A DNA stretch of 15,617 nucleotides, taken from Promethearchaeota archaeon (lineage in GTDB: Archaea > Asgardarchaeota > Lokiarchaeia > Sigyniarchaeales > SOKP01). The notes beneath the pieces were generated by a model that worked only from the letters and a program-made list of their open reading frames with translations, was not told the origin of the DNA and did not search any database. Shown here one piece after another: positions 6,746-15,518 of this stretch. Within the stretch, counting starts at the first letter, position 1, and every line of letters starts with the position of its first letter. The stretch is from positions 1-15,617 of the forward strand of contig JAEOTP010000022.1 of the NCBI GenBank assembly GCA_016839765.1. Reading direction: 5' to 3'. The position numbers were made by a program, and so were the translations under genes.

Positions 6746-7366
6746 TTGGTGTTTAAATTGAAAGGAACTATTGAACAAGAAAAAATAATATTTTATACTT
6801 TTAAAACGGTCATAATTGGTGCTCAGAGTGTTGGAAAGACTTGTTTATTCAATCGATTTTGTTTTAATTCTTTCAATTTCGATACATCACTCACAATTGG
6901 GATAAATTTTCACTCGATAAATTTAAAAATTAAACAACAAGACCAAATAGATATGTTGGGTGAAAACTTTATTGTTAATTCCATTTTTGATTTTGGTGGT
7001 CAAGAAAGATTTAAACCTCTACTTCCAAAATTTTTAGAAGGTGCTAATGGTGCCTTATTAGTATTTGATTTAATCAATAAAAAAACCTTTTCCCAACTAG
7101 ATTTTTGGTATAATCAGCTAATAGAACACGCTAATGGCTATTATATTCCTAAAATTTTAGTGGGTAGTAAATTCGATTTGGTAGGAAATACTCCTAAAGA
7201 AGAAAGAGTTGAAGATAAGGCAATAAATCAATTTATAGAAGAAAATAAATTAGATAGATTCTATAAAACATCAGCTTTAGAAAATTGTAATGTTGTAGAA
7301 GTATTTAAAGAATTAAGTAATTTAATGCTTAAAAAACAAAATTCTAATTTTGTTGTATTAGAATAA
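6746..7366 (+). CDS. Rab-like Ras-superfamily small GTPase
   Basis: G1 GAQSVGKT, G2 TIG, G3 DFGGQERF, G4 SKFD, G5 TSA. The TTG at 6758, 6 nt after GGTG (6748-6751), is a plausible alternative start. Confidence 0.92.
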   Translation: MVFKLKGTIEQEKIIFYTFKTVIIGAQSVGKTCLFNRFCFNSFNFDTSLTIGINFHSINLKIKQQDQIDMLGENFIVNSIFDFGGQERFKPLLPKFLEGANGALLVFDLINKKTFSQLDFWYNQLIEHANGYYIPKILVGSKFDLVGNTPKEERVEDKAINQFIEENKLDRFYKTSALENCNVVEVFKELSNLMLKKQNSNFVVLE

Positions 7367-10423: not shown

Positions 10424-10428
10424 GGTGA
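10424..10428 (+). promoter_or_regulatory. GGTGA Shine-Dalgarno-like site
   Basis: Lies 6 nt before ATT-CCA-AGA-TAT-TGT, which opens the zinc-ribbon frame. Confidence 0.55.
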
Positions 10429-10434
10429 AAAACT

Positions 10435-11352
10435 ATTCCAAGATATTGTACCGAATGTGGTAATCCTTTAAAAGAAGAATATGAATATTGTGTTAATTGT
10501 GGTAAGTCTGTACAAGAAGTAATGAGTCTTCCTGGTGCTGATAGCTTACGAGAGACAGAGATAAAAAAGGAGAGAAGAGAATCTAAATATATTCTTACTT
10601 CTTTTCAACGTAAAGTTTTCCTACAAAGGATTCTGCCAATATTATTAATAGGCTCAATAATTTGGTTGGTCAGTGAGATATTTTTTGATTTTATGTTTAA
10701 GGAATTTGAATTTAATTTTGTATTTTTTGTTTTTTATATATGTATGATAGTCCTTGAATTAAATATATTTATTATATTTTATTTTGTGTCAAAAGCGGAT
10801 AAAACTGATGCCGGGCTTATAATTTTTTTCATATTTTGTTTTATAGCAGGTATTCTAAGTCTTCCAATAATAATTTTCACTGAATTTCTCCCTCAAGTCC
10901 GTATGTTTATTACTTTAACACTTGGAGCAATAATTATAGTCTGTATAATTGGTATTGTTTTAAGGGTAAAATATTTCGCCAAAGGATATTTATGGGCTCA
11001 CATTATTCTTTTTTTAATAGGAACTGCGATAATGGAATTTATATTTATTATTCTTTTTAATATACAGAATTTCTTATTGACGATCCCTATTACATTGGCT
11101 TATATATCTATTGTATCACTAACAACAATGTTTTATGGGGCAAAAGCAGTACAAAAAAGTGAAAAAAGCCCTTGGATATACATTTTCTTTAAAGTTGAAG
11201 CTATATTATTACTAGCCCTTATAATAGCGATAGTTATTGTAGTAGTAGTTCTTATATTTATTTTAATTGCTATTGCAGTTGGTGATTCCAATATCAATTT
11301 ATCTGGTCTTAGTGGGGGGAGCGGAACCAGAAGAAAGAAGAAAGAAAAGTAA
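10435..11352 (+). CDS. Zinc-ribbon + ~7-TM membrane protein (Bax inhibitor-1/TMBIM-like); proposed ATT start, 305 aa
   Basis: The in-frame extension upstream of ATG 10522 encodes PRYCTECGNPLKEEYEYCVNCG (CxxC-x10-CxxC). About seven hydrophobic segments follow, then a Gly/Ser-rich and basic tail RRKKKEK. The gene is confident; the exact start and family are less so. Confidence 0.65.
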   Translation: MPRYCTECGNPLKEEYEYCVNCGKSVQEVMSLPGADSLRETEIKKERRESKYILTSFQRKVFLQRILPILLIGSIIWLVSEIFFDFMFKEFEFNFVFFVFYICMIVLELNIFIIFYFVSKADKTDAGLIIFFIFCFIAGILSLPIIIFTEFLPQVRMFITLTLGAIIIVCIIGIVLRVKYFAKGYLWAHIILFLIGTAIMEFIFIILFNIQNFLLTIPITLAYISIVSLTTMFYGAKAVQKSEKSPWIYIFFKVEAILLLALIIAIVIVVVVLIFILIAIAVGDSNINLSGLSGGSGTRRKKKEK

Positions 11353-11403
11353 GTAATAAACATTTAATCATTATTAAATTTAAATACCAGATAAAAAGAC
11401 ATA

Positions 11404-11411
11404 TTTATATA
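11404..11411 (+). promoter_or_regulatory. Putative TATA box upstream of comD
   Basis: TTTATATA preceded by purine-rich AAAAGAC, about 65 nt before the comD ATG. Confidence 0.3.
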
Positions 11412-11475
11412 AAAATCTAGTTGAATAATCTTTAACTAATTAATGTTTATAATAAAGCTGAGTTAACTATTCCAC

Positions 11476-11976
11476 ATGAATATTGATCAAAAACTATATG
11501 AGATAATAAAAGATTTCGGAATAGATTTGGTCTTATCAGTGCCCTGCATATTATTAAAGGGCATTTTGGATTTAATAAATGAAAGAAAAGAATTATTACA
11601 TATCCCTGTCACCCGTGAAGAAGAGGGCGTTGGAATTGCAGCAGGAGCTTATCTTGGTGGAAAAAGACCTGCAATCTTAATACAAAATTCAGGTTTAGGA
11701 AATTCTATAAATGCCATAACATCTCTATTAGAATTATACAATATTCCTATTATTTTTATTATGAGTCATAGAGGAGGAAAAGGTGAAAAAATCTTAGCGC
11801 AAATACCGATGGGAAAAATTACTAATAAACTGTTAGATTTAACTGGAATAAAAACTTGGTCCATAAAATCCAGCAAAGAAATCACAAAACTTAAAGAAGC
11901 AATTATTTATAGTCAAGAACATAACTGCTCTGTTGGCATTCTTCTACAAAAATCATTATGGAGTGAGGAAATATGA
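11476..11976 (+). CDS. comD: Sulfopyruvate decarboxylase subunit alpha (phosphonopyruvate decarboxylase-related)
   Basis: SVPC, TREEEGVGIAAGAYLGG, QNSGLGNSINA, SHRG and AQIPMG; ATGA overlap with the beta subunit. Confidence 0.88.
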   Translation: MNIDQKLYEIIKDFGIDLVLSVPCILLKGILDLINERKELLHIPVTREEEGVGIAAGAYLGGKRPAILIQNSGLGNSINAITSLLELYNIPIIFIMSHRGGKGEKILAQIPMGKITNKLLDLTGIKTWSIKSSKEITKLKEAIIYSQEHNCSVGILLQKSLWSEEI

Positions 11977-12530
11977 AAAGATTTGATGCAATAAATAGAA
12001 TTGCGGAAGTTTTAACTGAAGAACTCGTAATTTGCAATATTGGAATTCCTTCAAAAGAATTATACCATCTCAGAGATCGCCCTCAAAATTTCTATATGAT
12101 GGGTTCGATGGGTTTAGCATCTTCTATTGCTCTTGGATTAGCAATTTCTCAACCAAGAAAAAAAGTATGGTGTATTGATGGAGATGGTTCTATACTCATG
12201 AATCTTGGCAGTCTAAGTACTATCGCAAATGTTAATCCAAGTAATTTAATTTTGATTGTAATTGATAATGAATCTTATGGTTCTACGGGGGATCAATACA
12301 CTCATACCCATAATAATACTAATTTAGAAATAATTGCTGAAGGTGCTGGCTTTAAGTCAATAGTAAAGATTACAAAAGGAGAGAAAATTAAAAATATCCT
12401 GAGAGATTTAGGTAAAGGATGTCATTTTGTTTTAATTAAAACTAAACCTGGAAGTGCTCTGGTTAATAATATTCCTCTCAAACCAATAGAAATTAAAAAT
12501 CGATTTATGCAATCATTTACCAAAAATTAA
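11973..12530 (+). CDS. comE: Sulfopyruvate decarboxylase subunit beta
   Basis: CNIGIPSKEL, NFYMMGSMGLA, TPP-binding GDGSILMN...DNESYGSTG; GAGG RBS; translationally coupled to comD. Confidence 0.88.
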   Translation: MKRFDAINRIAEVLTEELVICNIGIPSKELYHLRDRPQNFYMMGSMGLASSIALGLAISQPRKKVWCIDGDGSILMNLGSLSTIANVNPSNLILIVIDNESYGSTGDQYTHTHNNTNLEIIAEGAGFKSIVKITKGEKIKNILRDLGKGCHFVLIKTKPGSALVNNIPLKPIEIKNRFMQSFTKN

Positions 12531-12547
12531 ACAAATTTCAATAAACT

Positions 12548-13072
12548 ATGTCAAAAAAAATAGAGGCACTAAAAGAAGTTTTGAAAAAGAACCCTAGTAA
12601 TTCAAATGCTTGGATACAAATTGGATATTTGTATTTTCAAAAAGATGAATATCAAAATGCTATTAAAGCTTATAAAAAGGGCATTGAACTTAATTCAAGT
12701 GAAGCTATTAATTGGCATAACTTGGGACATATCTATTATGAAATTGAGGAATATGATGATGCTACTAAAGCATTAAAAAAAGCTTTAGAATTAAATCCTA
12801 ATCTAGCAATCACATGGTCTGAGCTTAGTTCTGTTTATATTGATATGGGGAATTTTGATAAAGCTATTATTGCTTGTAAAAATGCCTTGAAACATAACTC
12901 TAAGGATGAATCTGCTTGGACCAATCTGGGTTCAGCATATTATAATCAGAAATTATATGATAAGGCAATTGAAGCTTTAAGTAAAGCATTAGAAATTATA
13001 CCTCATTTAGAGTTTGCTCAAAAATTACTTAAGTTAGTAAAGAAAGCTAAAAATGAAGAATTAAAAAAATAA
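12548..13072 (+). CDS. Tetratricopeptide repeat protein (about 4 TPRs)
   Basis: 34-aa periodic motifs: AWIQIG..Y, NWHNLG..Y, TWSELS..Y, AWTNLG..Y, each followed by A...ALELNP-like endings. Confidence 0.93.
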   Translation: MSKKIEALKEVLKKNPSNSNAWIQIGYLYFQKDEYQNAIKAYKKGIELNSSEAINWHNLGHIYYEIEEYDDATKALKKALELNPNLAITWSELSSVYIDMGNFDKAIIACKNALKHNSKDESAWTNLGSAYYNQKLYDKAIEALSKALEIIPHLEFAQKLLKLVKKAKNEELKK

Positions 13073-13179
13073 TTTAAGAAAAAAACACTCAATTTTTTTA
13101 ACACATAATTTTATTTAATAATTGTTTTATTATATTTTAAGGAGTATTAGTCCTTCAATTAACGTTTTACTATTTAAAA

Positions 13180-14748
13180 ATGACGGAAGATTTTGAAAGA
13201 GATGAAAATGAAGACCCTGATGATGATAGAGAGAATATCCAAGAGGAAGAAAGAGTTAGTAAGCCAGTAGTTATTAAAGCTGAAGCTTATAAGACAATAA
13301 TCTTATATGCCAGTAGATATGCAAATCAAGCATTACCAGCTAAAGATTGGAAGGAAATCTATGGAATTTTGACGGGCTACTCAGATGAGGATTTTGTTTA
13401 CGTAGAGAACAGTTATGCTTTAACTTTTGGACATGATACGGATGTAAGTTTAGATGAGCGGCATTATGTTTTTATTGATGAGATACAACAACAATTAGAT
13501 AAAGAAGAGCAAGGTCATTTTATTGTAGGCTGGTTTCATTCTCATCCAGGATTATCTCTCTTTTTTTCTTATGTTGATTTAATAAATCAATTAGGATTTC
13601 AAGCGAAATATAGTGATGCCATTGGATTAGTATTTGATCATACGCTATTAGGAAAAAAAAAAGAAGAGAAGATTGGTGAGAACATTCTTACTAAATATGA
13701 CACAGGATTTGAAATTTATCGATTAACCGATGTAAATTTGGACCCAAATTCTCCTGAATTTGAAAATAATTATTATAAAGTAGATTATATAGTTAAAGGG
13801 TTAAATAAGTATTTCTTTGCGAATGTTTTATCAGAATTGTCTGCGTTAGTTGCTGCTGGCAAGCCCTTACAATCAGCATATAGAGAAGACTATAAACAGA
13901 GAATAGGGATTAAAGACATGCAAGATTTTGAAAATAGTAGCTCAAATTCGGATAATTATATATCTGAAATAGATTTAAAATCAGAGCCTAAGGATTTAGT
14001 TAATATTCCTATGAATGAGGATTTCTCTTTTGGATTTAGTAACCTTTTTTATGACACATCAAACCAAGAAAGTCTTTCTGAATCTACTAGTTTAAAAGAA
14101 CGAGCCGAACATTTAATATATGAGGGAAATAAGGCATTTCAGAATAAGGATACATTTACAGGAATTGAAAGATACCGTCAAGGTATCGAAAAATATAGAG
14201 AATTAGATGATATTAATCGCGTTTTTGATTTATTGAGAACTGTAGCAAAATTATGTATTTCAAATAATCATTTGGTTCTAGCAGAGGAATTTGCAGATGA
14301 GTTATTCGAGTTGTCTAAGCAAAGTGATGAATTGTTTTATTTAGGAGTAGCAAGTTATATAATTGGATATATATCTTTAAAAAAAGGAGATAAACAAGTT
14401 TTAAAGGATGCATTGAAAAAAATTGAAAACTCAGCTATATATTTTGGAAAAGTAATGGATTATGCTGGAGCTGGTATGAGTTATAATAAAATTGCTACAA
14501 TGTATCAAACAAGACTTAAAAATTATGATAGTGCATGTCTTTTTTATAAAGAAGCTATAGAAAATTATAATAAAGCTATAATTCATAGTCATCCTTTAAG
14601 AAAATCTCTCTGGAGTAAACCTGAATTACTTAGTGAAAAAATAATTGAATTAAGAGATTTAGTTGATGAGCTAATACCAAATGTTGAGAATTCTGAAATA
14701 AAAGAGAAAATAATTAACGACCTCAAATTTATAAGATACAACTATTAA
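13180..14748 (+). CDS. JAMM/MPN+ metalloisopeptidase (Rpn11/CSN5-like) fused to a C-terminal TPR/alpha-SNAP-like solenoid
   Basis: KEIYGIL (catalytic Glu, 13354) and VGWFHSHPGLSLFFSYVD (HxH-x7-S-x2-D, 13537-13578); acidic N-terminus; Ser/Asn/Asp-rich linker; helical repeats at the C-terminus. Confidence 0.88.
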   Translation: MTEDFERDENEDPDDDRENIQEEERVSKPVVIKAEAYKTIILYASRYANQALPAKDWKEIYGILTGYSDEDFVYVENSYALTFGHDTDVSLDERHYVFIDEIQQQLDKEEQGHFIVGWFHSHPGLSLFFSYVDLINQLGFQAKYSDAIGLVFDHTLLGKKKEEKIGENILTKYDTGFEIYRLTDVNLDPNSPEFENNYYKVDYIVKGLNKYFFANVLSELSALVAAGKPLQSAYREDYKQRIGIKDMQDFENSSSNSDNYISEIDLKSEPKDLVNIPMNEDFSFGFSNLFYDTSNQESLSESTSLKERAEHLIYEGNKAFQNKDTFTGIERYRQGIEKYRELDDINRVFDLLRTVAKLCISNNHLVLAEEFADELFELSKQSDELFYLGVASYIIGYISLKKGDKQVLKDALKKIENSAIYFGKVMDYAGAGMSYNKIATMYQTRLKNYDSACLFYKEAIENYNKAIIHSHPLRKSLWSKPELLSEKIIELRDLVDELIPNVENSEIKEKIINDLKFIRYNY

Positions 14749-14825
14749 ACCTCTTTTTGATATTTACACTTTTTAATAATAAAAAAAAATATATTCTAAG
14801 GTATATTATTTTAATTACTTCTTTT

Positions 14826-14830
14826 GGTGA
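14826..14830 (+). promoter_or_regulatory. GGTGA Shine-Dalgarno-like site
   Basis: Lies 7 nt before in-frame ATA-CCA-CGT-CGA-AAA. Confidence 0.5.
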
Positions 14831-14837
14831 TGTTATT

Positions 14838-15518
14838 ATACCACGTCGAAAACAGAAAATTAAATATTCTAGAAAAATCGCTTGTAAGCATCTAAAACCG
14901 TTAGGAGATATTTCTAACAGTCTGCAACCTTTATGTGTCTGTCCTTCAAGAGATTTAATACTCGGTAGGAGAGCTTACGTATGTCAGGTATGTTCAATCT
15001 ATGATCCTGCAAAATCTAATAGTAAAATCCAAGAAGTTTATGAAGAGAGTAGAAAAATTGCGGAAAAAAAGATCTTAGAGAAAAAGATTAGTTTAGAGGA
15101 TTTCGAACTTAAAGAGCTCACAGGAGATGACGAAATTGACTTAACTTTTGATGAATTTGAAGAAGAAGAGGAAGAAGAACCTTTAAAATTTGAAAAACGT
15201 AAAGTTGGAAAAGATGAAATAATCGAGGCTGAAGAATTTGGAGATTTAGAATGTCCATTTTGCGGGGAAATCTTTGAAGATTTAAGATCACATATATCAT
15301 CTTGTGAATTTGCTCCTGATGATGTTAACATAGATGATGTGCTCCCAAGTCGCAAGAAGAAGAGAAAAAAAACTACTGCACCCAGTTCTCAAGCTAAAGA
15401 AGATAAGGAAAAAGAAAAACAAGTGTGCCCTTATTGTGGTAAAGAATTTGTTAGATTAGGACGACATCTTAAGTCATGCCCTAAAAAGCCTCAAGACGCA
15501 GAAGAGGAGAATGAGTAG
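14838..15518 (+). CDS. Multi-zinc-finger protein (N-terminal Cys/His cluster, acidic tract, two C2HC fingers); proposed ATA start, 226 aa
   Basis: CKH...CVC...CQVC, then CPFC-x9-H-x3-C (15252-15305) and CPYC-x9-H-x3-C (15426-15479). The listed TTG start at 14757 runs through A/T tracts that look intergenic. Confidence 0.65.
   Translation: MPRRKQKIKYSRKIACKHLKPLGDISNSLQPLCVCPSRDLILGRRAYVCQVCSIYDPAKSNSKIQEVYEESRKIAEKKILEKKISLEDFELKELTGDDEIDLTFDEFEEEEEEEPLKFEKRKVGKDEIIEAEEFGDLECPFCGEIFEDLRSHISSCEFAPDDVNIDDVLPSRKKKRKKTTAPSSQAKEDKEKEKQVCPYCGKEFVRLGRHLKSCPKKPQDAEEENE

Follow-up and report, generated by a model that had tools for sequence, protein, structure and literature searches.

Candidate near-cognate start codons behind strong Shine-Dalgarno motifs in a family of Asgard archaea

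Start regions of two genes and the genome-wide signal

Can translation in an archaeon begin at AUU or AUA when a strong Shine-Dalgarno (SD) motif precedes the codon? The question was raised by two genes in the window, a stretch of 15,617 nucleotides. It came from a 3.32-Mb metagenome assembly (29.7% GC, 96 contigs), and the named loci nearest to it were mostly labelled Promethearchaeia or Promethearchaeota, corresponding to Lokiarchaeia, Asgard archaea. In the first gene (here the 10435 gene, from the position of its putative start) GGTGA was followed after 6 nt by ATT and then CCA AGA TAT TGT; in the second (the 14838 gene) it was followed after 7 nt by ATA and then CCA CGT CGA (Table 1). The initial annotation, which had placed both motifs correctly at 10424 and 14826, proposed that this lineage starts at AUH codons (ATH in DNA: ATT, ATA or ATC) behind strong SD sites. 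In-frame enrichment and codon swaps among orthologues supported this, and the repertoire appeared wider than AUH, with ACG in relatives. The sequence comparisons lead us to conclude with considerable confidence that both genes begin at true near-cognate starts behind a strong SD. Very probably, about 3% of all genes in this archaeon and its family begin at ATT, ATA, ATC or ACG in the same setting.

Upstream of the 10435 gene, three in-frame stops were present besides the TGA contained in the motif. The earliest in-frame ATG, GTG or TTG was the ATG at 10522, downstream of an N-terminal zinc ribbon, so that no canonical codon separates this TGA from the ribbon, as had been pointed out. The database record starts at this ATG, and its 276-aa protein has lost the ribbon. 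The sole upstream in-frame canonical codon of the 14838 gene was the TTG at 14757, from which the gene would be longer by 27 AT-rich codons. The expectation that gene callers would truncate or over-extend such genes held at both sites, the first being called from ATG 10522 and the second extended to TTG 14757; in the family of the latter, 28 of the 120 called proteins began at the inferred codon and 92 were padded or cut.

The 16S gene was not assembled in this genome. In 11 genomes of the genus the 16S ended in GGATCACCTCC, the complement of GGAGGTGATC, and GGTGA, which had been taken for an archaeal SD, pairs with this end. Complementarity to the 16S 3' end is a property of SD-led archaeal initiation, as is a short fixed spacing: genome-wide, ATG was enriched 4–9 nt and ATH 5–7 nt behind GGTG(A). 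A third property, the limitation of start codons to AUG, GUG and UUG, was not observed in this lineage.

The genome-wide test considered the in-frame codon 5–7 nt behind the motif near the 5' end of long open reading frames (ORFs). Behind GGTGA this codon was ATH in 35 of 135 cases, exceeding ATG (26). The proportion fell to 10/254 out of frame (p = 4e-10), the comparison by which the initial annotation proposed to check its idea, to 98/1274 behind GGTGA inside ORFs (p = 2e-9) and to 19/237 at a spacing of 11–15 nt (p = 5e-6). Five decoy motifs showed no ATH excess in the same test, and GGAGG/GGAG-type SDs showed little or none. The signal became sharper when sites explained by a nearby ATG, GTG or TTG were dropped: 88/166 of the remaining GGTG sites (53%) and 49/75 of the remaining GGTGA sites had ATH, compared to 68/466 (15%) for the decoys (p = 5e-21 and 4e-19, respectively). 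In the class with a 6-nt spacer, where the GTG of the SD is out of frame, ATH was found in 33 of 50 cases, 30 of which had no upstream ATG, GTG or TTG. By this excess, approximately 89 of the 2695 ORFs (3.3%) would be such genes. A screen based on homology flagged 29 of 304 genes, and eight (2.6%) were accepted by eye as clear cases; the others were rejected, being non-coding sequence conserved between near relatives, shadow frames or potential frameshifts.

The candidates also resembled N-termini. They aligned to ATG in 6 of 24 pairs, compared to 20 of 663 for internal Ile, and the residue at position 2 was like that following ATG starts (Ser in 17%, compared to 7% internally; p = 3e-4). Proline at this position had been suggested to favour AUH starts. 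It was found in 10% of the cases after ATH, in 7% after SD-led ATG (p = 0.30) and in 4% internally, and orthologues of the 10435 gene retained ATT before Ser or Lys as well. Proline at position 2 thus marks N-termini generally, and its role as an enhancer of ATH starts received no support. The genetic code itself is unchanged. Internal ATH (pooled) aligned to ATG in 2%, and internal ATG to ATH in 10% with ATA twice as common as ATG; internal ATH therefore behaves as Ile, and AUA is not read as Met in the mitochondrial manner.

In other members of the family the SD-anchored test gave 43/67 ATH vs. 17/169 (p = 1e-16). The sister family (f2) was weak, with 4/7 and 2/6. No excess was seen in four other Asgard lineages, sampled at 200 kb each (f5, 1/13; f15, 1/24; f4, 1/30; f7, 0/4). 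Since three of these have a higher GC content and the fourth sample is small, the boundary drawn for the trait at the family is provisional; families f9, f17 and f21 and non-Asgard archaea were outside this range test. One genome of 54% GC (G033; loci L155–L164) had two GGTGA sites followed by in-frame ACG and none followed by ATH, possibly a counterpart of the ATH usage that employs a GC-rich codon.

Orthologues and competing explanations

The codon before P-R-R-K in the 14838 gene was compared in 38 distinct orthologous contexts. It was ATA in 11, ATT in 11, ACG in seven, ATG in six and ATC in three, with no other codon; ATG thus occupies the very same position in some relatives. All 38 contexts were restricted to AUG or codons one base away from it, as expected of near-cognate initiation. 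In 120 database homologues, the corresponding residue was I in 75, M in 29 and T in 11, five being truncated. All seven Thr cases that were looked up used ACG, the rarest Thr codon in this genome (8% of Thr codons). A tolerated internal Thr derived from ATA or ATT would more often be ACA or ACT, so the exclusive use of ACG speaks against an internal residue. On a quick, unrooted tree, I, M and T had to interchange approximately 16 times, with at least five changes forced for T, which indicates repeated swapping at this position and not one event. The SD was weakened to AGTGA in five of the six ATG contexts, and the near-cognate contexts kept GGTGA or GGTTG/GGTCG; this suggests that a strong SD compensates for a weak codon, although the ATG cases are related to each other. 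The frame of the SD differed among orthologues, most relatives had in-frame stops 2–17 codons upstream, and the sequence upstream of the inferred starts was not conserved as protein.

The seven orthologues of the 10435 gene had ATT (six genomes) or TTG (G007) always behind GGTGA, with a spacing of 6–7 nt, and paralogues start with ATG or TTG. The zinc ribbon (window positions 10435–10521; loci L002–L019) was found in one subclade plus G007 only.

Several points weigh against near-cognate initiation as the explanation. When a broad set of SDs was compared to non-SD 5' positions, the ATH ratio was only 1.2–1.4, with a background that itself contains true ATH starts; the strong signal was confined to GGTG-type sites. 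The candidates sampled for swaps with ATG were few, some internal false positives among them, and the related genomes in the orthologue comparisons are not independent. By eye, aIF1, aIF1A (two copies), aIF2-beta, aIF2-gamma, KsgA, the initiator tRNA and the 16S 3' end looked ordinary, and none showed a change that would account for the relaxed selection. Two further points concern the genes themselves. Most orthologues of the 10435 gene in the genus have no ribbon and start near ATG 10522, and in one genome (G019) the ribbon is frameshifted, which makes this gene, taken by itself, the weaker case; the true start could be ATG 10522, with the ribbon as a silent remnant. This is very unlikely. 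Six other genomes retain the ribbon cysteines, with synonymous changes and at identities as low as about 43%, and ATG 10522 is missing in G013, G022 and L206, the first canonical codon of G013 being 64 codons in. Moreover, in G007 the ATT is replaced by TTG, again following this SD, and the genome-wide signal is untouched by this explanation.

The other point is that, for the 14838 gene, an in-frame GTG or TTG lies 2–3 codons upstream in 24 of the 32 near-cognate contexts; the gene of the window itself has none. Gene callers pick such codons, located within the SD-like motif or immediately after it in many relatives, or the TTG at 14757, and they could be the real starts, Ile, Met or Thr being then internal. 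We regard this as very unlikely, since the frame of the motif varies (5, 6 or 7 nt) and the codon before P-R-R-K is fixed. Eight contexts have no canonical codon nearby, and two genomes, G007 and G024, have an in-frame stop two codons upstream. Five of the six ATG contexts also carry such a GTG or TTG, so the motif itself gives rise to it. Among Thr codons, an internal residue would not be confined to ACG, the 27-codon extension to TTG 14757 is not conserved, and the explanation is inapplicable at 10435. Recoding, by read-through of the TGA, by a frameshift from the out-of-frame GTG of the motif or by RNA editing of the codon to AUG, has nothing in its favour beyond the presence of this TGA and this GTG, and is highly improbable: three additional in-frame stops lie upstream, the spacer of 5, 6 or 7 nt among orthologues rules out a fixed shift, and no single editing chemistry converts U, A and C at position 3 plus C at position 2. 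An error of assembly or sequencing concealing a canonical start, conceivable in a metagenome assembly of 96 contigs, has a negligible probability and is already refuted. At both sites, contigs of the probable source run were identical to the window; two other studies provided contigs covering 10424, with no indel listed there, and the same arrangement was present in dozens of independent genomes. The initial annotation had named three observations that would count against it, and none of them was made: the enrichment was in frame, the upstream sequence was not conserved as protein, and the independent assemblies had no indel.

We therefore retain near-cognate initiation. In the model that we propose, the strong SD would hold the small subunit so that the near-cognate codon occupies the P site, and an ordinary Met-tRNAi (CAU) would pair with two of the three codon bases. 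The products would be M-P-R-Y-C and M-P-R-R-K, made at a lower efficiency than from AUG. The weakened SD in most of the ATG orthologues is consistent with a strong SD offsetting the weak codon.

Initiation factors and known systems

A loss of fidelity factors was not found. The genes for aIF1, aIF1A, aIF2-beta, aIF2-gamma and KsgA were all present with open frames; aIF2-alpha was not searched, and subtle substitutions are possible. The initiator tRNA (contig C91, 11313–11447), read by eye, was normal, with a CAU anticodon, A1-U72 and three G-C pairs. Its gene is interrupted by an intron after position 37 and, apparently, by a second insertion ahead of the T arm, and ARAGORN miscalls it as tRNA-Gly. 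Two divergent copies of aIF1A were observed (C47, 4912–5118; C63, 901–1107). The aIF2-gamma gene (C67, 196732–198291, minus strand) has a 519-aa frame with about 100 extra N-terminal residues, by eye a helix-hairpin-helix-like segment and a linker. Frames of 480–600 aa are patchy across the family (f1) and f2, the others being of about 400 aa; occurring irregularly in the family and in f2 as well, this extension does not track the trait and was rejected as its cause.

The gene for aIF1 (C91, position 35519, minus strand; loci L052–L053 and L125–L143) is itself a candidate. Its likely start in 21 copies of the family was ATT in 15, ATA in four and ATC in two, and 16 of the 21 copies had no canonical alternative before the zinc knuckle; in the genome of the window the first canonical codon lies 40 codons later. 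A conserved weak start in the gene of a fidelity factor is the arrangement known from infC and eIF1 autoregulation. In other Asgard families the likely start was TTG, GTG, CTG, ATA or ATG. Two side observations concern the same gene: a TTG-TGA start-stop pair lies in frame 3–4 codons upstream, within the SD-like motif, in genera g1, g12, g15 and g16, and G007 and G106 each have two copies.

Near-cognate starts are rare in Escherichia coli, where infC and pcnB are examples. The AUU of infC resembles the present cases in that a third-position near-cognate codon stands behind an SD, and in that here, too, the gene carrying such a codon encodes the fidelity factor itself (aIF1). The differences are that about 3% of genes are concerned, that AUA, AUC and ACG are also used, and that the factor is an eIF1-like aIF1, for which feedback would be assumed by analogy. 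Animal mitochondria use AUA and AUU as starts; their AUA is often reassigned to Met, with a modified tRNA wobble base. They share with this lineage AUH codons as ordinary starts in an AT-rich genome, and differ from it since here internal ATH behaves as Ile and aIF1 is retained. The SD-led initiation of Pyrococcus and Sulfolobus is similar in its GGAGGUGA-type SD, its anti-SD AUCACCUCC, its spacing and its full aIF1/aIF1A/aIF2 set (PMC7531240, PMC6237735). The start codons listed for it are AUG, GUG and UUG only (PMC7531240, PMC6237735), as in archaeal reviews (PMC7531240, PMC12993045), and Sulfolobus aIF1 discriminates against AUU, blocking its binding in vitro (PMC4705826). SD sites have been called rare in Lokiarchaea (PMC7531240, PMC12993045), a judgement made from one annotated genome. 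In eukaryotes, eIF1 autoregulates through a poor AUG context and near-cognate starts (CUG, ACG, AUU) are used; common to both are the SUI1 factor family and, in the proposed model, one-mismatch codons read by Met-tRNAi. Eukaryotes scan and use the Kozak context, whereas in this lineage placement of the ribosome falls to an SD and the weak element is the start codon. The literature searched, which excluded most subscription journals, yielded no description of AUH starts in Asgard archaea.

IF3 autoregulates through the AUU start of infC (PMC4705826) and eIF1 through a poor start context (PMC6237735). Together with the in vitro block of AUU in Sulfolobus, these precedents make a negative feedback plausible, in which aIF1 would set the stringency and its own ATH start, kept throughout the family, would act in the manner of IF3 and infC. 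The case for this more speculative idea is evenly balanced. A further step is more doubtful: the relaxed start rule of the family might form a regulon of about 90 genes (about one in seven of those led by an SD) on AUH or ACG, tuned by the autoregulated aIF1, as an archaeal counterpart of the IF3/eIF1 feedback in the group closest to eukaryotes. We are considerably more confident that near-cognate initiation here stands out for its scale and for probably including aIF1. AUH and ACG starts on a few per cent of genes would offer a natural system for studying how P-site stringency is set, and the lineage bears on how an Asgard ancestor gave rise to eukaryotic strictness. Because of its start codon, aIF1 offers a direct test of autoregulation in archaea. 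N-termini are misannotated in these genomes: besides the lost ribbon of the 10435 protein, aIF1 would lose its zinc knuckle.

Other features of the window

Table 1. Coordinates of the features discussed in the window.
Feature	Position	Strand	Remarks
Small Ras/Roc-family GTPase, canonical TTG start	6746..7366	+	GGTG-N6-TTG at 6748-6760 probably incidental
Shine-Dalgarno GGTGA	10424..10428	+	TGA 10426-10428 doubles as in-frame stop bounding the ORF; complementary to genus 16S 3' end
Putative AUU start codon	10435..10437	+	ATT in six genomes, TTG in G007; four in-frame stops upstream
Membrane protein, 305 aa, N-terminal zinc ribbon (about 10444-10509)	10435..11352	+	Pfam PF13240, E 2.4e-5, just under cut-off
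Pyrimidine tract TACTTCTTTT	14816..14825	+	directly 5' of SD, kept across the family
Shine-Dalgarno GGTGA(T)	14826..14830	+	GGTGA in 24/32 near-cognate orthologous contexts, AGTGA in 5/6 ATG contexts
Putative AUA start codon	14838..14840	+	orthologues ATA 11, ATT 11, ACG 7, ATG 6, ATC 3
Zinc-finger protein, 226 aa, faint PF28519, conserved in Promethearchaeota	14838..15518	+	callers in clade extend to TTG 14757

The GTPase gene had been cited as a parallel case of a start behind GGTG. The motif exists (GGTG at 6748–6751, TTG at 6758) but arises from the codons TTG GTG. One orthologue has ATG at the position of 6746 and another has no GGTG, so the motif is probably incidental and was rejected as a non-canonical case; the start is probably the canonical TTG at 6746 rather than 6758.

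An Atlas lookup of the 10435 protein gave a weak lead only. The pyrimidine tract sits between a JAB-domain gene and the zinc-finger gene and is possibly a terminator or a transcription-start element. At positions 14827–14832, an out-of-frame GTG and ATG within the SD open an overlapping ORF of about 22 codons, present in the subclade of this genome only. In the gene at 13180–14748, the JAB/MPN domain is fused to a C-terminal TPR/SNAP-like region, and its synteny with the zinc-finger gene is kept throughout the family. A thiamine pyrophosphate (TPP)-enzyme N/C gene pair, which we take to resemble the sulfopyruvate decarboxylase ComD/ComE, occupies positions 11476–12530, and the non-Asgard relatives found for it were mostly bacterial.

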